Shown here: piece by piece, positions 821 through 28,059 of the stretch | Position numbering within the stretch: the stretch's first letter is position 1 | Layout: every line of letters begins with the position of its first letter | DNA from: a virus | Lineage: Duplodnaviria > Caudoviricetes | DNA: 31,887 bases | IMG/VR virus record: IMGVR_UViG_3300044448_005232 | Span: 1 to 31,887 of that record | Reading direction: 5' to 3' (one strand) | The notes under the pieces: generated by a model | Databases searched by the model: none | What the model saw: only the letters and a program-made list of their open reading frames with translations | Told to the model about the DNA's origin: nothing | Translations under genes and position numbers: made by a program

Positions 821-3800
821 TCATGCTCTCTCAACAATAGATGTCATGGTAGTACCTGTATTTACTGTACTTCTCATCGGTTTATTCATTCCTGGTGGAC
901 GGCCTGGTCCTTCTTGCTTTGGCTGAAAAGTTGTTCTTAAAACTGCCATTGACTCAGGGTTCATGACAGGTATTTGAAACATTCTTGCAAGATTAAGACG
1001 ATCGGCTCGGCTTATCCTTTTATAAGTTCCAGGCTCTGACAGCTTTTCAATTACTTTAGTTTGAACATCTGCAAATATATTTGGTGCAGCTATCCTAATT
1101 GCCTCAATAACCTCATCAGTAGCTGTTCCATTGGACAAAGCATTTACAAGAGAATCAACTGGCTGATTTAAAGCCTCAAGAGTTCTTGAAAACTTAGCAA
1201 GCTCAATGGTGGTTGGAGCTACTTCATCATCAAGAAAACCAGGATTAGCTGTAGATGGCATCACTCTATAAGCATGAGAAAGACGATTTCTTAAAAGACT
1301 TTTAATGGCATTTTTTGTTTCAGGCATATTATCGCCAAGATCTGCAACTGACGCATCAAGAAAAGATTCCATCTCTACTGGACTTGTATTTATATAAGTA
1401 AGGAAATCTCTTGTTTCTTTAAACTGCTCTATAGTCATTCTGCTTGAAACAGGACCTAGTTTTTTTCTAATTGCTTTTTGTTTCTTGCGTTTTTCTTCTT
1501 CTTGCTTAGCCCCCTTCACATCTCTTTGAGATGCTGCAGGTAAAACAAAAGCTCTTGATATAGACTTGGGGGCAATTCTTTTTTCGCCGCCAGTTGAAAG
1601 ATAATTGATATATTTATTAACTAAACCATCAGTTTCCTGAATTCCTTTTCTGGCCATGTTTTCAATAATAAATAATCGAGATGCACCAACTGCGGGATCA
1701 ATAATGCTTTCAGCAGCATTAACAACCATACCAGTGGTAAGGCCGCCAACATATGGAAGAAACGTATTTGTATTTGGAAGATATGCTCTAGAGTTCATTG
1801 TCTGAGCGTTAACGGCAGTCCACCTTAAAGCGCTGCCTGCTTCACTTGTAATAAAATCAATGTCTTTATTTAATTTATCATTAGAGCGTTCTAATTTACC
1901 CCGTACTCGATTAAAGAAAATCTCAATATCGTGAGGGCTGCTAGATTTGCCAAGAGTGCCATTTGTAAAACCATCATCAACATACTGTCTTAATTTTTCA
2001 GAAAGCTTTACAGTTAATCCCTGAAGATCATAATCACGTATTACCATTTCAAGAACTTCTTGCCCTTGAGTTGCATGGCTTTGAAGTATTCTGGTTTTAG
2101 GTTTAACCGTATTTATTCTTAAACTTCTCATCCAGTTAAAGATTTTTGTTTGATCTGCAAAATTATCAAGACCATCATTTGCCATAAATTTAGATCTAAA
2201 ATCTTTATGAGTTAAAGAAAAATCTTTTCTGGCTTTATCTTGAAGCTGCTTGTAAATTCCCATGTTTCCAAACAAATTTTCGCTTTTTAATAAAGGTCTA
2301 AGATCTTTCTCAACTAAGTCATTAGCAATATCAGTTGCTTGGCTTGTAAGTTTTCCACCAAACATTCCAAAAAACTCATTACTTATATCTTCAAGCCTGC
2401 TCCATACAGCAGCCGTAAAAGCAGAGTCAGTAAAGCCGGTCATTTGAGCATCATTTAAAAACGATATAAATCTATTAACATCGCCACTATCCATAATTTC
2501 ACTGATAGTTTTATCAATCTGGCCAGCCATGCCAGGATCTCTTGCTAGTACACTTTCTTTAAATGTTTTCCAGTCAACTTCATTTAAAATATCTGCCCAG
2601 CCTTCAACTAATTGATTTGATCTTTGGCCACCAGTTGCAAAGCCTATTGCCTCTGGAGCAGTTGTCCATTTTTTAATAAACGGCTCAACAAATTCTGTAT
2701 CTAATGGATTTTTTTCTGATATCTGCTGAGCAGCAACAAGGGCTCTGTCTACTTGATCTTTCATTCTTTGAAGAGTTAAAGCAACCGGGGCAACAGGCAA
2801 GGCATCTGCTGCATCCCCCATTGGGTTTTGAATAATTTGTAAAACTCTAGTTCTTCTCATCCCAGCTTTATCTGCTTGCTGCAAAAGCTCTTCAACAAGA
2901 AAACTTTCATCAACAGATTCTGATAAACGCTCAGTTATTTCTGAAAGAGTTGACGCTATTTTCTTAGATTGAATTCTGGCTTTTCTGCCTTCTTCACCAA
3001 GGTTAAGCATTAACTGAGCTTCTTTTATTTCTTCAGTAGTAGCTGCGCCGCCTTTTTTAATAAACATGCCCATTCGAGCAATTGCATCTGTTGTAGCTTT
3101 AGATGCACCAGAGCCTGCAACTAAGCCAGCAATGCCGCCTCCGGCTTTCATTGTTGCAGTACCTAATTTACCAAGCAAAGGAATGCCTGCACCAAAACCA
3201 CCAGAAACAGCTCCACCAATAAGAGCATTTGTTGTCATTGTGTTTAATACATGCTCTGCAACATTGTCTAAGTTACCAAGAGACGCTTCTGACAAACCTT
3301 CACCAGCACCATAGATGCCGCCTTCGACCATGCCTGCTGCAATTGTACCAGTTGTACCTGAAATAAGATTTGCTGTTACTGGGCTAAGGTCTTTTAAACT
3401 TTTTCCAAACCCAGGAATTTTTGCACCAACACCCCGCTTAGCAACAAAATTAGCAACAACTTTATGAGCTGCTAGACCTGCTCTTGATGCTATTGCTGGA
3501 GCATTTAGGTTAGCTGCAATAGATGCTGCTTTTCCTAATGTGCTTCTGTGCTTTAAGCCTTCAGTGGCAAGTTTTCCAAGAGCAACTCTTTTTGCAAGTT
3601 CCTTTGCTCCAAGCTGTGCTCCTGCAGTGCCTAATTTTGCTACGCCAGCAGACGGACCAAGTGTTCCAGAATACAGGGCAGATGCAATTGATCCAATAAT
3701 ACCAGCACCATGATATGAACCGGGGTTATAGTTTTGATATTTATCCCAGCTTTCTGCAGCTTCATCTGAAAGCTGCCTTGTAATCCAAGGAGCGGCTCCA

Positions 3801-4093
3801 AGTGTACCGTAATCAAGAAGACCTAATACACCGGATAAAACTGTGCTATCGCCATACTCTTGACGCTCAAGAGCTTTGTTTGCTTCTACTTTGCTAAGCC
3901 ATCTTGCATTTCCTCTTACAAGGTCATTGGCTTCAGAGCCTGTTACGTTTCCTACTGTGCCATCTCTTAAACGAAGAAACACATCAGCATTAGATGGGAA
4001 ATCATATCTTCTTGTAGATAGCTTTCTGTTAACAAGCTTATCATCAAAATACTCAAGCTGGCCCGTTGATTTATTTACAAGAGGAGTTGGCAT
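821..4093 (-). CDS. Large internal virion / DNA ejection protein
   Basis: 1090 aa with a Gly/Ala-rich hydrophobic N-terminal third followed by mostly helical sequence. Last and largest gene of the block after the nozzle, as in podovirus ejectosomes. No catalytic motif recognised. Confidence 0.6.
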   Translation of the reverse strand: MPTPLVNKSTGQLEYFDDKLVNRKLSTRRYDFPSNADVFLRLRDGTVGNVTGSEANDLVRGNARWLSKVEANKALERQEYGDSTVLSGVLGLLDYGTLGAAPWITRQLSDEAAESWDKYQNYNPGSYHGAGIIGSIASALYSGTLGPSAGVAKLGTAGAQLGAKELAKRVALGKLATEGLKHRSTLGKAASIAANLNAPAIASRAGLAAHKVVANFVAKRGVGAKIPGFGKSLKDLSPVTANLISGTTGTIAAGMVEGGIYGAGEGLSEASLGNLDNVAEHVLNTMTTNALIGGAVSGGFGAGIPLLGKLGTATMKAGGGIAGLVAGSGASKATTDAIARMGMFIKKGGAATTEEIKEAQLMLNLGEEGRKARIQSKKIASTLSEITERLSESVDESFLVEELLQQADKAGMRRTRVLQIIQNPMGDAADALPVAPVALTLQRMKDQVDRALVAAQQISEKNPLDTEFVEPFIKKWTTAPEAIGFATGGQRSNQLVEGWADILNEVDWKTFKESVLARDPGMAGQIDKTISEIMDSGDVNRFISFLNDAQMTGFTDSAFTAAVWSRLEDISNEFFGMFGGKLTSQATDIANDLVEKDLRPLLKSENLFGNMGIYKQLQDKARKDFSLTHKDFRSKFMANDGLDNFADQTKIFNWMRSLRINTVKPKTRILQSHATQGQEVLEMVIRDYDLQGLTVKLSEKLRQYVDDGFTNGTLGKSSSPHDIEIFFNRVRGKLERSNDKLNKDIDFITSEAGSALRWTAVNAQTMNSRAYLPNTNTFLPYVGGLTTGMVVNAAESIIDPAVGASRLFIIENMARKGIQETDGLVNKYINYLSTGGEKRIAPKSISRAFVLPAASQRDVKGAKQEEEKRKKQKAIRKKLGPVSSRMTIEQFKETRDFLTYINTSPVEMESFLDASVADLGDNMPETKNAIKSLLRNRLSHAYRVMPSTANPGFLDDEVAPTTIELAKFSRTLEALNQPVDSLVNALSNGTATDEVIEAIRIAAPNIFADVQTKVIEKLSEPGTYKRISRADRLNLARMFQIPVMNPESMAVLRTTFQPKQEGPGRPPGMNKPMRSTVNTGTTMTSIVERA

Positions 4094-17813: not shown

Positions 17814-19331
17814 TCAGTGGCTATAGAGGTCAGAGTCAGCATATCCGATCCCCCACACTTCAGAATCATAATGCTCTTCATGTTCTTCCTCAAGAAGTTT
17901 TTGCTCCATCTCGTCTTCAAGTCTCCTGAAGTACTCCTTAGACCCTTTTTCAGGCTCATAACCAAGCTCTTCATAAAGATAGTGCCTGGATTCTTGCCAT
18001 GCATAAAAACAAGCATCTGAAAGGTGATTATCAAATCTTCTGTCTTCAGCAGTCCCGGCCTTGTTGTACTGGAGCTTATCCCACTCTGTTAAAAGCTCCA
18101 TGCCTCGTTTAACCTTGATATTACAGGCTTTTAGCTCTGAGTTCATAAGTTTAATCATGCCTACTTTATCGCCAGACTTATGAGCTGGCTTAATTGGAAG
18201 GCCGGTTCTTTGCTTAAAGGTTTCCATGACCATCTTTGAGGCGCCGCCACCTGTATCCATGACGATTGCAGTAAAGTCATAGTCACACATGAATCTATGT
18301 ATTTTTTCCTCTACTTCAGAGGTGAGCATCTTACTTTGCTTGAATTCATCAATGACATAAAGTGAAGGGTAGTCAGGTGTCCAAGCAACAACCACAAAGG
18401 CCGTAGCGTCATGATATCCGAGGTCGATCCCGAGGACATACTCCCACTCATCACTGACTGGTCTATCCTCGAACAAATTGTCCTGACTATAGTTATAGAC
18501 GATTTCCTGATTGTCGCGGACCCAGACTCCGAGGTACTCGCGTTTATAGGAGGGGTCGGAGGGGTTGAGGATTCCGTTGTCGATATCCTTTTGGATAGCT
18601 CGGACAGCGTGCTGCATGTAGGGGTTGTCTTTAACTGTCCACCTGTGAACTGAAAAATTATAAAAACTCTTTTCAGTTACATCATAAAAAAATCCATAAC
18701 AAGAAGAGTTAGGGGTAGAAATCATAACAAGACTTCCATCCCTATCAAGCAAGGCCGGAGTAAGAACTTCGTTCACCAGTTCTTTCAGGTTGATATTAAA
18801 GAATGCAGCCTCATCTAAAACAGCCAAGCTAAATGCAGCACCACGAAGTTTATCTACATCACTGGCATCGTTGGCGCCGGTGAACATAACCTGAGAGCCA
18901 TTAGGAAATGTAGCGACAAGATCTGCATTATTAAACTTAATGCCAAGACGAAATCTTTGATTGGCTTCTTTGAGGGAGCTCCAAAGAATACGCTTAGCCG
19001 CTTCCCTGGTACGTGCGATATACACACACATTGTACCATCAGCTTCTAAACACTCCTTGATAAGATAACGCCCTGCAGCATAACTCTTCCCACTACGTCG
19101 AGAACAGATAGCTGCTTTTCTTTTTGATTTATCATTAATAAAATTAAGCTGCTCAGGGAATAGGTTCTTAGTAAGGTTAAGCATCCTGCTTTTTTCAGAG
19201 TGCTTTTGAGCTACATTTTTTTGACCACCGGTAAGACCATTCCTTACAGCATATGCTTCCAGGATTTCTCTACTGGTGACAGAAAGAGAAGGGAGCTTAG
19301 ATTCACCCTTTGAACCTTTTGGTCTACCCAT
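17814..19331 (-). CDS. terL: Terminase large subunit
   Basis: Walker A CSRRSGKS, Walker B LAVLDEAAF, coupling motif ISTPN, RNase H-like nuclease GIDLGYHD...DNHLSDA. Likely start MGRPKG at 19331; the ORF track extends it to 19364. Confidence 0.93.
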   Translation of the reverse strand: MGRPKGSKGESKLPSLSVTSREILEAYAVRNGLTGGQKNVAQKHSEKSRMLNLTKNLFPEQLNFINDKSKRKAAICSRRSGKSYAAGRYLIKECLEADGTMCVYIARTREAAKRILWSSLKEANQRFRLGIKFNNADLVATFPNGSQVMFTGANDASDVDKLRGAAFSLAVLDEAAFFNINLKELVNEVLTPALLDRDGSLVMISTPNSSCYGFFYDVTEKSFYNFSVHRWTVKDNPYMQHAVRAIQKDIDNGILNPSDPSYKREYLGVWVRDNQEIVYNYSQDNLFEDRPVSDEWEYVLGIDLGYHDATAFVVVAWTPDYPSLYVIDEFKQSKMLTSEVEEKIHRFMCDYDFTAIVMDTGGGASKMVMETFKQRTGLPIKPAHKSGDKVGMIKLMNSELKACNIKVKRGMELLTEWDKLQYNKAGTAEDRRFDNHLSDACFYAWQESRHYLYEELGYEPEKGSKEYFRRLEDEMEQKLLEEEHEEHYDSEVWGIGYADSDLYSH

Positions 19332-19779
19332 GATAGCTCTCAACTTCATCTTTACTATGGTCATCAGACAATAAAGAATAGATATATGCTGGAAGAAGAT
19401 TGGCTATAAACCGAACGTTCCATTTATCTCTGGCATTTATAGACTGCATGTTATGTGACCAGTAGGTACAGAACACTGTTGATTTCTCATCAGGATAAAT
19501 ATCTCTTAGCAATTTTTTGCCTATGCCATTATTCCTAAAGGCTTTTTTAACAAATACAAAATGAAGAAGAGGTGTTGTTTCGATAGACCCATGAGCAGCC
19601 CAGCCAAGAATATGATTCTCATCATCATCAGCACAGAACACTTTGATGTTTCGATTATTATAAGCGTTGTCTATGACAAATCGCGTCATGCTACTAACAG
19701 CCCTGGTCGGGCACTTTACAGACTTAATCCATGAGTCATAAATAAAGTCTTCGTCAATTGCCTTAATATCTCTAATCAT
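19324..19779 (-). CDS. GNAT-family acetyltransferase
   Basis: Acetyl-CoA-binding motif A: LHFVFVKKAFRNNGIGKKLL. Start at ATG 19779 after AAGGAG. Confidence 0.7.
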   Translation of the reverse strand: MIRDIKAIDEDFIYDSWIKSVKCPTRAVSSMTRFVIDNAYNNRNIKVFCADDDENHILGWAAHGSIETTPLLHFVFVKKAFRNNGIGKKLLRDIYPDEKSTVFCTYWSHNMQSINARDKWNVRFIANLLPAYIYSLLSDDHSKDEVESYHG

Positions 19780-19780
19780 T

Positions 19781-20164
19781 TTACTGCTCCTTGCCGCTTT
19801 TGGCATTTTCATGTGCTTCAGATTGTTTTGCTCTGGCCTTGCGCTCTCTTACTGATTTGGCCACAAGTCTTTCAAGCTCCTGGTTAGATAGCTGAGCAAG
19901 CTCTGTAGATTTGAGTTGTGATTCAATCTCGAGAAGCTTCTTTAGCCCATTAAAACAGCTATCAAGTTTAGACATCTCTTTGGGGTCAAGTTCTTCGTTG
20001 TTGTCTGCCTTTTCTTTTAAAAGACTTATTTGGCTCTCAGTGATTTCGTACAGATCGCTCCAAAGACGGTGCTTGTCCTTGGACTGTACGATCTTTACCT
20101 TTTTGCCCCTGACTGCATAAGTTCCGCCAGTGTCTCCGGCCCGTCTTGCTTGTGCCATGCTCAT
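19781..20164 (-). CDS. Putative terminase small subunit
   Basis: 127 aa, helical, RBS CAGGAG; first clear gene of the packaging operon. C-terminal LAQLSNQELERLV resembles TerS tails. Assigned mainly by position. Confidence 0.5.
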   Translation of the reverse strand: MSMAQARRAGDTGGTYAVRGKKVKIVQSKDKHRLWSDLYEITESQISLLKEKADNNEELDPKEMSKLDSCFNGLKKLLEIESQLKSTELAQLSNQELERLVAKSVRERKARAKQSEAHENAKSGKEQ

Positions 20165-20253
20165 TCTCCTGCTGCATTTGCTTTAATAAAAGTAAAGCTG
20201 TTCTGAGACTATCGTCAATCATTGGATATAAATTCCTCACAATGAATACTAGA

Positions 20254-20482
20254 TGTCTGTTGTGCCAGATTCAACTCTGCCCTATCGTAGGAGTACTGGT
20301 TACGGAGTAGACGCGATTAAGTTCCGGGGGAGCTTACCTAAACGCGGACACGCAACCCTTATCTCCTTACATCTCATCAAGTACCTAGCTGCTGAGTATC
20401 ACCGGTAAGCATCGTGAATAAGGGTGGTGCCAGCTAACCAGGCGCTTAGACACAATACAGTACGAGAGAAATCTCTAATCTG
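20254..20482 (-). ncRNA. Candidate structured RNA / leader with crossing helices
   Basis: Perfect complementary pairs CTGGTTA/TAACCAG, GCTTACC/GGTAAGC and ACCCTTAT/ATAAGGGT in an ORF-free interval. Strand is inferred from late transcription. Confidence 0.35.
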
Positions 20483-20498
20483 CGGCTTTTGCTAGGAA

Positions 20499-20663
20499 AC
20501 CGGGGGGGGTGTTTTATAGGATCTGTACCTAAAGATAATAAATATTATTAAATAATAAAGATTATTATATATAACGCACTGCGCTAAACCCAAAATAGGG
20601 AAAAATTCATACAGGGTGTTTAACCTTTTCTTAGCTTTGTCTAACCGGGGATACCCCCTCCCT
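20499..20663. other. G-run / AT-rich / G-C palindrome block: candidate genome end, packaging site or divergent control region
   Basis: CCGGGGGGGGT, an almost pure A/T stretch (20531-20573) and CCGGGGATACCCCC lie at the switch between the late and early arms. Confidence 0.35.
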
Positions 20664-20699
20664 TAATAGATGTGTGTTGTCGCGAGTGTTTCGGTCGGG

Positions 20700-21483
20700 T
20701 TCACGCGGCGGAGTTGGCTCGGCCTACTTTGCTTGGCAGCAAAGGCTCGCTGTCGCTCATTCGCGAGGCTCATTCACTCCCTGACGCTCGCTCGGCCTCG
20801 ATGCGTACCGCTAACCTGCGGTTATCGCTTCGTATTTCCCGCGCTGGCGCGCTCCTGGGTTCAACACACCCCCGGTAAAATAAACCCCTGCACTACGCTT
20901 CGTACCGAAGATCAAGCACTTACACTTGGTTCTACTTGCAAAAAGCCGGGGTGAATTGAACTAAAAAACTACTTTTCACTCCGTTTTTTCCCTGTTCGGG
21001 GCGCAAATGCTTACTTGTGTTTCACTCGCAAGGCTCGTTCAACCGCATTTGCTCAAAGGCTATCCAGTTGTTTTGCCTCCGGCGGCCAAGGTTTCGCCCT
21101 TGGAAGGCACGCGATGCTTCCTCCTTGGCTCCAATCGCTTCGCGCTTGTTGCTTTGCGTCGTCTCTTTGTCTTCGTTCGCAGGGCTCACTACGACCGCAT
21201 CGCTCGTATGAAGAAATTCCTATTCCTCTTGAATCTCCAATTATGACACGGGTGCTGGCACAAAACCTCAAGTGCTCGCAGGCTGCGCTTTGATGTTTTG
21301 CTGGCATCTGAGTCCAGTAAAGAACGCCTTCGGCGCCACACGACAAAATAGACACAAAAGCCACTGCGTGGCCCTTCGGGTGCGCAGGCGCACTTTTGCA
21401 TCGATTTTGCCTTAGTGGTGAGCACACGCCTTTTTGGGCTTTTGTGCTCATTCTTGACAGAACTCAGACTGTTGGCCCGTGTC
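20700..21483 (-). other. GC-rich non-coding region of G.A-mismatch and GNA-loop hairpins (ssDNA-structure element)
   Basis: Several symmetric hairpins close only if minus-strand tandem GA/GA pairs are allowed (20745-20791, 21019-21043, 21169-21195). GNA triloops at 20812-20824, 21137-21143, 21325-21335 and 21372-21380. Confidence 0.7.
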
Positions 21484-21498
21484 CTTTTATTAATATTC

Positions 21499-21572
21499 AA
21501 TGAAAAAAATAATAAATAAAAAAAATAACTAATAAACTTACTTAAAAAAAGTTCAACAAACAGGAGAAAACA
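21499..21572 (+). promoter_or_regulatory. A-rich leader and RBS of the first early gene
   Basis: About 60 nt A-rich unstructured tract ending in AAACAGGAGAAAACA-ATG. Confidence 0.55.
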
Positions 21573-22202
21573 ATGAACTTAGAAGCAATGAAAAAGCAGA
21601 TGTTAGCCAAAGCAGCGGTAAAGCGAGAAAACGCGCAGCTGAAAGCCAATACCGCTGGTAAAAACAAACTTGCCCCGTTAGACCAAAGTCGGGTGCTAGT
21701 CACACTAGAACAAATGGCCATGGTCCAAGTACTGGAGCGAGACTTACAGCTTACGGAGGAAGGTAGTCCTGAGTACCAAATGTTCAAGATTGCTCTCAGT
21801 GAGGCTTGGAACAACATCAAGTCAAGCACCCCCAAAGGCACGGCCGAGCACTCACACATTTACTATACAATATTCCAAAGTTACCCATCGAAAGTTTGGT
21901 TTGATGACAAATCTCCGCAAGCTTACGAGGCGCGCATTGCATTCCTGGCACAGTGGCATGACACCATTGAGTTGGCCTTGGAACGTAAAGAGGCGGCTAC
22001 TTATACAGTGGATGAAGATGAGGATAGCGGCGAAGATGAAGAACTGGATGCCCACGAAAAACTACACCGCATGAAGGCATCTGAGGATATACACAATACC
22101 GGCCTGACCTGGGATGCGTACGAGGATGAAATATCCGAGAGAACATCGGAAGTTGCATCGATGTTCACGGCGCTGGTGGTGCCAGACATCGTCAACTTCT
22201 AA
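21573..22202 (+). CDS. First early protein, hypothetical, acidic C-terminal half
   Basis: 209 aa with a strong RBS and its own terminator; contains DEDEDSGEDEELD. Confidence 0.8.
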   Translation: MNLEAMKKQMLAKAAVKRENAQLKANTAGKNKLAPLDQSRVLVTLEQMAMVQVLERDLQLTEEGSPEYQMFKIALSEAWNNIKSSTPKGTAEHSHIYYTIFQSYPSKVWFDDKSPQAYEARIAFLAQWHDTIELALERKEAATYTVDEDEDSGEDEELDAHEKLHRMKASEDIHNTGLTWDAYEDEISERTSEVASMFTALVVPDIVNF

Positions 22203-22222
22203 CCAGGCCGAAAGGTCAGTGG

Positions 22223-22264
22223 AGCCTCGGCGGGACCAATGCGTCTCGTCGGGGCTTTTTATTT
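22223..22264 (+). terminator. Rho-independent terminator
   Basis: AGCCTCGGCGGGAC-CAATGC-GTCTCGTCGGGGCT-TTTTATTT: 14-bp stem with three G.U pairs on the plus strand, then a U-run. Confidence 0.8.
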
Positions 22265-22274
22265 GACCGGACCA

Positions 22275-22305
22275 CGCCCTCGCTGCGCTGCGCTCCGCTC
22301 GGGCG
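22275..22305 (-). other. Isolated G.A/GNA DNA hairpin
   Basis: Minus strand CGCCC-GA-GC-GGA-GC-[GCA]-GC-GCA-GC-GA-GGGCG. Confidence 0.7.
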
Positions 22306-22395
22306 GGGCAACCTGAGGGATACACACGAGCGACGGCCAGCGGTTTTTTTGCCGTATGGCCTTTTTGATTTCTAATTTTAAAACAGGAAAAACTA

Positions 22396-22731
22396 ATGGA
22401 ATTTTTTAAGACATTAAAACGATTTGGAAAAAAGATTGAAAAAGAAGTTTACGAGGATCAAACGCTCATCTCCATTGCTTACCGAGTTAGCCCCGAAGCT
22501 GTTGATCTTCTGGATATTGTTTTTGATGAAGTCCTTTCTAAGATTCTTAACTCAGATGAGTATCAAGAACGAAGTGCTCTTCAAGCTGAAATACAATTTT
22601 TAAAGAATGAAATAGATTCAAGAGAAGAAACAGAAAACTTTCTTCGTGACGAAAACACAACACTTAAAGAAAGAGCTTACAACATTGAAAAAGCTCTGCA
22701 TGCAGCTGGAAAAGGATATTTGATAGAATGA
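22396..22731 (+). CDS. Hypothetical early protein (coiled-coil C-terminus)
   Basis: 111 aa, RBS ACAGGAAAAA. Confidence 0.75.
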   Translation: MEFFKTLKRFGKKIEKEVYEDQTLISIAYRVSPEAVDLLDIVFDEVLSKILNSDEYQERSALQAEIQFLKNEIDSREETENFLRDENTTLKERAYNIEKALHAAGKGYLIE

Positions 22732-27576: not shown

Positions 27577-28059
27577 ATGCAAATTAACATTAATGCAAAC
27601 AGTCTTAAAAAACTGGTGAGGCTAATGAGGCTTTTGGCTAATGAGCTTGAAAGCCTTTATGCTCAGAAGAAATCTGAATCGCCTACACCTATGGTTGTTA
27701 TATCTAAGAATGACTCAGATACTCATCTGGTTATTGATTACTACAAGATTACTCACCCCAGCAGAGGCAAGGGCCTTAACAATAAACATAAAGACTGGAG
27801 GCTAATTCGAAAAAGGTTAGATCAAGGATACTCTGTTAAAGACCTTAAACGCGCTATTGATGGCAACTTCAACATGAAGTTTTGGAAAGAAAAAAGACTT
27901 CATGGAATCCAGCATATCTTTGGAAAAGATGGAAACCTAGAAACCTTTATCAGTTTTGGAAAGAATAAAGATTATGAGAAAGATGGAAAAGCTGGATACA
28001 ATTCTGGGAGTACCGAATGGGGGAGTGATTTCGATGGATTCGGCGACGGGGATCAGTAA
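27577..28059 (+). CDS. Putative replication initiator / replisome organiser
   Basis: LIRKRLDQGYSVKDLKRAIDG resembles the conserved C-terminal domain of phage initiators; directly precedes a DnaC-like gene. Start at ATG 27577. Confidence 0.65.
   Translation: MQININANSLKKLVRLMRLLANELESLYAQKKSESPTPMVVISKNDSDTHLVIDYYKITHPSRGKGLNNKHKDWRLIRKRLDQGYSVKDLKRAIDGNFNMKFWKEKRLHGIQHIFGKDGNLETFISFGKNKDYEKDGKAGYNSGSTEWGSDFDGFGDGDQ

Follow-up and report, generated by a model that had tools for sequence, protein, structure and literature searches.

Minus-strand G.A-zipper hairpins beside a probable terminase site in a family of marine tailed phages: candidate single-strand priming signals

The building blocks of the hairpins described here, and a priming role for them, are already known from plasmids and single-stranded DNA phages. 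One such site lies at ColE1 1330-1360 and in IncF plasmids; we take it to be ssiA (n'-pas), a primosome-assembly site, and GNGGAAGC to be the pas motif. ColE1, an IncFIA plasmid and a small Morganella plasmid have CCGAGCGTAGCGAG in common with conserved flanks, and both the ColE1 site and the IncFIA plasmid carry the 13-nt core CGAGCGTAGCGAG. In phiX174, GCGAAGC and an A5T4 tract are both found in the F-G gap, and the pas is described as a hairpin where PriA loads DnaB (accessible part of PMC5778457). Mini-hairpins are also reported at the G4 origin, at RSF1010 ssiA and in N4 promoters, and SSB binds mini-hairpins poorly (PMC13037366, in the portion available). A further parallel comes from Streptomyces telomere palindromes, which are packed one-strand hairpins with sheared G.A closure near a genome end (PMC4513846, in the part available).

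The window, by which we mean the whole stretch of 31,887 nucleotides analysed here, comprises positions 1-31,887 of IMG/VR record IMGVR_UViG_3300044448_005232, an 83% complete record of an uncultured podovirus-like phage; the sequencing runs that hold the phage are seawater or marine metagenomes. The late genes (terL, portal and capsid) are on the minus strand and the early genes are on the plus strand from 21573, with an early block that encodes an exonuclease, Sak4, a DnaC-like loader, a RusA-like resolvase and a gene in the SSB position. The large terminase gene, terL, is found at 17814..19364 (minus; phrog_2, E 9e-48), and the first late ORF at 19781..20164 (minus), which has no family match, is a putative small terminase gene (terS) by its position. 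Between the two, at 19324-19812 (minus), there is a GNAT acetyltransferase that is present family-wide. The first early gene (21573..22202, plus) has no assigned function and is fast-evolving (30.8% DNA differences to the relative L002); to judge from the sequence, a terminator-like hairpin and T run follow it at 22221..22266 (plus). An earlier note on this DNA called the region at 20700-21203 an early leader. It is actually a divergent intergenic gap of variable sequence that separates the late operon from the first early gene. The minus strand here serves the early genes as template and is at the same time the late-gene sense strand. Elsewhere in the window, the O-position gene contains short direct repeats at 27878-27999 (plus; AGTTTTGGAAAGAA twice), a possible iteron origin. 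We found no close cultured relative and no prophage copy among GTDB genomes, and a blastn search of cultured phages with the hairpin region returned only 3 AT-rich matches, all attributable to chance. A Toprim primase was found in 0/5 genomes, with the positive control found in 14/14. A single RNA-library contig covers terL to 21207 evenly, which is not evidence of transcription.

On the minus strand of this gap, we found three GA-zipper hairpins. Hairpin 1 (20752..20780) has three GA/GA steps around a CTC loop and extends to 20745-20791 across an internal loop. The earlier note had counted four GA/GA steps at 20745-20791; three of them are contiguous within 20752-20780, one beside a T.G wobble, and the fourth, judged by eye, needs an asymmetric internal loop. 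Hairpin 2 (21003..21052) consists of 21019-21043 with a CTT loop, and it does sit inside the 8-bp stem that had been described, at 21003-21010/21045-21052. Hairpin 3 (21111..21203) consists of 21169-21195 with a CCT loop, one GA step and one GNA step, and a 7-bp outer stem; the proposed GCGATGC/GCATCGC stem is there, within 21111-21117/21197-21203, but the hairpin is off-centre in it. The span of hairpin 3 also holds GCGAAGC (21137-21143) and GAGGAAGC (21116-21123), and the whole module is present twice in L099. Between hairpins 1 and 2 there is a GCA triloop hairpin, TAACC-GCA-GGTTA (20812..20824), with a 5-bp stem and a C.G closing pair. The sequences quoted in the earlier note, including this one and GCGAAGC, were all located at their minus-strand places, and the plus-strand motif TCGC-NNN-GCTC that it saw recurring occurs in 3 copies window-wide (20761, 21026 and 21177) and in 0 on the minus strand. 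Closer to the first early gene, 21325..21409 contains, on the minus strand, three GNA triloop hairpins and a stem at 21344-21409 with G.T wobbles; by-eye comparison recognises this stem in L063, L064, L099, L141 and L143, upstream of the first early gene. Hairpin 4 (22272..22308, minus), which the earlier note omitted, is on the same strand, immediately after the first early gene's terminator; it has a GCA loop and three overlapping GCGNAGC.

The minus-strand-only hairpins are real and strand-specific. We counted 3 GA/GA hairpins and 5 GNA triloops on the minus strand of 20700-21203 as compared to shuffle means of 0.01 and 0.76, with 0/500 shuffles reaching either count, and we counted 0 and 0 on the plus strand; this is the comparison of strands and shuffled sequence that had been suggested, and it came out in favour of the hairpins. 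Because the scanner was written after the hairpins had first been seen, the shuffle test is post hoc, and the core-flank test described below is the independent one. Nearest-neighbour folding is significant on neither strand (z = -0.16 as RNA, z = -1.36 as DNA), and the GA-zipper hairpins are missed by standard folding programs. In L002, the ORFs that span 21207 and 21360-21379 carry frameshifts.

To compare relatives, we collected 8 viral and 67 metagenomic loci of 55-98% identity in terL searches, and motif searches gave more loci. In the core-flank test, only the inner core (GAGC-N2-3-GCGA or GAGT-N2-3-ACGA) was searched for in 29 loci, and the outer two positions were then checked for pairing. 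On the early side, on the hairpin (terL-sense) strand, both outer pairs are Watson-Crick in 17/28 cores, with seven dinucleotide types, as compared to 1/16 expected; leaving out the window, the count is 14/25. Elsewhere, pairing was found in 2/8 cores on the other strand and in 0/8 and 1/6 on the late side, and control cores formed the outer pairs in 2/19, 2/34, 2/53 and 3/8. The loci are related, so the cases are not fully independent. This test shows that the predicted flanks of the GA hairpins covary across the phage family: with GA/GA allowed, the outer positions vary among related contigs and are often kept paired, which supports the suggestion that selection acts on a structure of one strand. 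In the window and L002, three hairpins have no substitution while terL third positions differ at 94/516, and one GNA hairpin is broken in L002; the low divergence of the hairpins could stem from recent recombination.

Multi-step hairpins have the same bias. In 107 kb of early side there are 11 on the hairpin strand and 2 on the other strand, and there are 0 in 164 kb of late side. Over 20 relatives, GNA triloops number 42 on the hairpin strand and 25 on the other strand, as compared to 19.3 in shuffles. The hairpin strand and the position relative to the box discussed below and to the first terminator are constant across phages of 58-100% terL identity. Presence among relatives is patchy, with module swapping. 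A paired core is found within 3 kb of the box in 10/18 loci with at least 2.5 kb of sequence and is missing in 8/18, the complete relative G001 has no multi-step hairpin, and eight loci (L105, L070, L093, L065, L064, L067, L050 and L100) have zero GNA triloops on the hairpin strand, 3 of them zero on both strands. L069 and L071 carry tandem CGCGTAGCG copies, and in these two loci tandem CCCGCGTAGCG-type triloop repeats replace the GA zippers, 300-800 nt from the box. The contigs of L001 and L071 start, at position 1, inside a GA-hairpin loop, which may be an assembly effect.

A second location recurs among the relatives. Of 26 loci examined, 8 distinct ones have, immediately beyond the first early unit and at 1.2-2.5 kb from the box, a GA hairpin with an A4T4 tract after it, and this distal element has the core CGAGCGTAGCGAG in common with ColE1 and the IncFIA plasmid. 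Hairpin 4 of the window is its positional equivalent, without the A/T tract, and in L110/L111 a GGA triloop takes the place of the distal GA hairpin. The exact 24-base pattern of the distal element matched 8 viral stretches, one of them from the window's phage family; six of the 8 are three lineages of another family in which first early gene, terS and terL are arranged in the same way, with the terminases of L210, L211 and L214 confirmed. The remaining stretch, L208, has three copies of the pattern ahead of the terminase operon, on the terL template strand and not the sense strand. DnaA boxes lie beside the distal hairpin in L105 and L118; over this region the count is 11 in 71 kb as compared to 21 in 300 kb elsewhere, only a minority of relatives have such boxes, and there is none in this region of the window.

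Sequence conservation ends sharply at a G-run/C-run dyad box, G5TATC4 (also written G5TAC4), at 20647..20658 (minus). On its late side, conserved boxes at 20574..20617 (minus) comprise ACCCT..TGAATTTTT (20601-20617) and a GCGCAGTGCGT dyad (20574-20584), and ACCCT..TGAATTTTT and GCAGTGCGT are preserved among relatives; the hairpin side is not alignable. Because the box lies upstream of the terminase genes, we infer that it is a packaging or genome-end site, probably where terminase acts (pac or repeat end). A blastn search with the window's box matched no phage record, and one with the box of L065 gave one short unannotated match only. The contigs have no preferred start base, and contig depth, which cannot map genome ends, shows no doubling over 20660-22290 in four runs. 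IHF-like sites occur near the box, in a strict form of the consensus that we assumed for IHF in 4/20 relatives and with one mismatch in the window. A TTTACCGGGG-like motif is present at 20870-20880 and 20911-20922 of the window and 140-330 nt from the box in 6/20 relatives, with an IHF-like site near some.

Ahead of the late operon there is a separate 237-nt, strongly covarying structured element (20273..20519, minus), a candidate late-leader RNA. On the minus strand, 24/31 predicted pairs have two-sided changes (26 sequences), and on the plus strand 23/33 pairs do. The minus assignment is tentative, since plus-strand covariation is similar, although G.U pairs lean toward minus. GTCCG and CGTCTACTCCGT are invariant, and the model of the element matched 45/57 sources, in relatives of 69-100% terL identity and none in the 58-61% group; there was no Rfam match. 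In that 58-61% group (L105, L108-L110, L113, L117 and L118), another conserved set, TACTAGTAATAC, TGTCAA and TTGACA, replaces the element upstream of the first late ORF.

How closely do the phage hairpins resemble the plasmid sites? In silico they fold on one strand only, as ColE1/F/phiX174-type sites do, and they have the same one-strand core hairpin, GA-GC-N3-GC-GA; GAGGAAGC occurs once in the window. The GAGC-GNA-GCGA core is exact in relatives; the window has pyrimidine triloops in three of its four GA-zipper hairpins and a one-off GCA form in the fourth. Unlike the plasmid element, the window has no conserved flanks and has multi-step GA zippers, and whole-length homology to the ColE1/F element including its flanks was not found. 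A ColE1/F ssiA model built from 3 plasmid copies gave no window match at E<=5, and in relatives it gave core-only matches, the L113 match being circular. The L113 hairpin itself matches 1,793 plasmid records, and among the 25 matches listed there was no annotated feature beneath. There is no family-wide enrichment of GNGGAAGC (3 on the hairpin strand, 7 on the other). The settings also differ, in that ColE1/F ssiA adjoins a plasmid origin whereas the phage hairpins adjoin a packaging-type box of a tailed double-stranded DNA phage. With phiX174 and the microviruses the common features are the GCGAAGC mini-hairpin, an A5T4 tract and one-strand arrays of cores and GNA loops; in microvirus MH572274, the intergenic region contains 2 cores along with 6 GNA triloops, every one of them on the gene-sense strand. 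However, the microvirus virion genome is single-stranded, and exposure here needs resection, displacement or supercoiling. In contrast to Streptomyces telomeres, the phage is terminase-packaged and no terminal protein or Tap was recognised in it.

Judged by its sequence, the GA-hairpin design is not peculiar to the window's phage. The 16-mer GCGAGCGAAGCGAGCG matches at least 122 viral stretches; we analysed 80 of these, which gave 73 distinct loci, 13 of which form one cluster. For controls, GAGC-N3-GCGAGTGAAAC gave 41 stretches, all chance except L045, and the other 40 gave 25 distinct. GCGAGCGAAGCGAGCG falls outside ORFs in 52/73 loci as compared to 8/25 controls (p = 7e-4), and a terminase gene within 2.5 kb was found in 15/73 as compared to 2/25, which is not significant (p = 0.13). 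PHROGs identified terL in 17/52 GCGAGCGAAGCGAGCG loci whose chosen flanking ORFs were scanned, a count that has no control. In cultured viruses, short core matches are individually weak (E about 1 or more), and those inspected are a hand-chosen subset. They lie between genes in microviruses, HRPV-2 and HRPV-6, upstream of terminase genes in Xanthomonas L522 and Burkholderia SBP9, and close to the repeat edge in DejaVu and Pavlo, phages discussed below. In T7-like S-RIP1, the DNA that separates terL from the first early gene contains two inverted copies, one of them antisense to all neighbouring genes. A match in MedDCM-S42-C7 was dropped, as it is apparently coding DNA and has no core, and short searches with the window's own hairpins matched almost only coding DNA. 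Six large phage contigs of 108-221 kb (L147, L158, L165, L175, L176 and L188) have the same AGTGAGCC-N2-GCGAACGA module near position 2501 and, some 170 nt from it, another GA hairpin on the opposite strand. The archaeal virus HRPV-6 carries the core and, to our knowledge, PriA is absent from its host context, so PriA is not the sole possible reader.

What the hairpins do can be read in several ways. We tentatively favour, at somewhat less than an even chance, accessory single-strand initiation or priming signals for host PriA/DnaG, used in end processing or recombination-driven replication. A rather unlikely alternative, which can coexist with priming, is that they are landmarks of the genome end: the box and hairpin 22272-22308 would bound a terminal repeat of ~1.6 kb with the first early gene inside it, and the displaced strand, once folded, would position or stop terminase or a nuclease. 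The distal hairpin and A4T4 element and its recurrence in another phage family with the same layout fit this idea, as do the two inverted copies in S-RIP1, while the window has no A/T tract and no phage polymerase was recognised among its scanned ORFs. The Microbacterium cluster ED phages DejaVu and Pavlo, which also count for this reading, have a similar layout (PMC7302621, in the part available), with late and early genes opposed, repeats of 2,959 and 3,354 bp, respectively, that hold leftward early genes and end inside a box-like CCCCGGG|CACCCCC..TTCAA, and a GA-rich motif at 70-95 nt from this edge; however, that motif is on the other strand and outside the repeat, the other repeat edge has no such hairpin, the likeness to the box is one of a G/C-run motif, the blastn search with the window's box found no phage record, and terminal repeats are hypothetical in the window's family. 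We consider it quite unlikely that the hairpins are mobile or hitch-hiking REP-like modules of little use to the phage that gather in a tolerant variable region. Patchy presence, module swapping, the tandem CGCGTAGCG of L069/L071 and the module in unrelated viruses would all be expected of such elements, but strand and position relative to the box and first terminator are constant, late intergenic DNA has none, a GIY-YIG (Ssn-type) nuclease was found in 0/5 genomes (control 12/14), and PHROG and Pfam scans of the window ORFs found no HUH nuclease.

The remaining readings invoke entry or transcription. Hairpins at the first-injected end could be DNA-entry signals comparable to the injection-stop region of T5, or could serve as decoys against nucleases or ssDNA sensors of the host, and we regard this as very unlikely. 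The region adjoins the first early gene, the lowest terL E-values are to T5-like phages (about 26% identity), L105 and L118 have DnaA boxes beside the distal hairpin, and the T5 iss is rich in palindromes and contains DnaA boxes (bioRxiv 10.1101/866236, in the part available); however, the window region has no such box, relatives that do are a minority, the T5 iss is highly conserved whereas the hairpin region is not, and injected DNA is double-stranded. As for the landing pad that had been proposed, an essential entry signal is unlikely because 8/18 well-covered relatives have no paired core. The proposed hairpin promoter set, in the form of N4-type template-strand promoters extruded by supercoiling between the divergent operons, is likewise improbable. 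As in coliphage N4, there are C-GNA-G triloops (6/8 in the window) on the early-gene template strand, and no sigma-70 consensus was found at 20100-22500 of the window, although early-facing sigma-70-like sites are present in 5/28 relatives. N4 extrusion needs the C-GNA-G form, and tandem GA stems, present here, are not described in N4 promoters (PMC4496689, in the part available). The triloops have no common flanking sequence such as the conserved -17 to +1 of N4 promoters, and the hairpins are at no fixed distance from genes. No virion RNA polymerase was found: a T7-type RNA polymerase (PF00940) was detected in 0/5 genomes, 3 of them at least 90% complete, which is weak evidence as the control was silent, and the largest ORF in the window (83% complete), G001, G002 and G004 is 1,265 aa as compared to about 3,500 for vRNAP. 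The 1,090-aa virion-type protein at window 821-4093 (minus) leans instead to the P22 gp16 ejection protein, its nearest named Atlas cluster (score 0.93, 63% of members), as a lead only. We give equally little credence to hairpins that act in RNA made off the minus strand. The late genes are encoded on that strand, RNA too can form tandem GA pairs, and the covarying 237-nt element is just downstream on the same strand; however, GNA triloops are a DNA-stable motif (PMC3201870, in the part available), neither strand of 20700-21203 has GNRA or UUCG loops, RNA folding is not significant, and Rfam (Flavo-1, STAXI and others) had no relevant match in the hairpin region or in loci with the module. Hairpin 4 is antisense within the early region, and the same core occurs on a non-coding strand in S-RIP1. 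These observations agree with the earlier argument for a DNA rather than an RNA fold.

The hairpins most likely act on a briefly single-stranded minus strand, because they fold on one strand and have their core in common with plasmid priming signals. Priming is the best supported of the three functions first proposed, since copies of the core are found in ColE1, in IncF plasmids and in the intergenic DNA of microviruses; against it stand the missing full ssiA match in the window, the pyrimidine loops, the patchy presence and the L208 hairpins on the terL template strand. Under the priming reading, the minus strand beside the box would become transiently single-stranded through 5'-3' resection and annealing (phage exonuclease, Sak4 and the SSB-position gene), rolling-circle strand displacement or terminal-repeat duplication. 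Sheared G.A stems and GNA loops would resist SSB coating, and host PriA/DnaB/DnaG would start the complementary strand, running toward the early genes. Several interchangeable hairpin copies would give redundancy, and relatives without hairpins presumably prime by other means.

In the literature searched, where subscription and older papers are thinly covered, we found no account of covarying GA-zipper hairpins at phage ends or a terminase site, although the supplement of PMC2864571, a source available in part, may describe similar motifs. The part without a published description that we could find is the family of covarying GA zippers next to a tailed-phage terminase site. In a bolder version, which we think unlikely, GA-zipper hairpins would be a general signal at tailed-phage ends: in this family, where no phage polymerase was recognised, the box and the distal hairpin would bound the terminal repeat, and hairpins on the displaced strand would recruit the host primosome to duplicate it. 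If true, this reading would identify the step that primes the duplication of terminal repeats in primase-less phages; how ends are formed and copied in tailed phages that have no polymerase or primase of their own is poorly understood. A motif with fixed G.A pairs and covarying flanks recurs in plasmids, single-stranded DNA viruses and phage end regions. Taken together, these data provide comparative evidence for selection in genomes on sheared tandem G.A stems, which are mostly known from oligonucleotide NMR.
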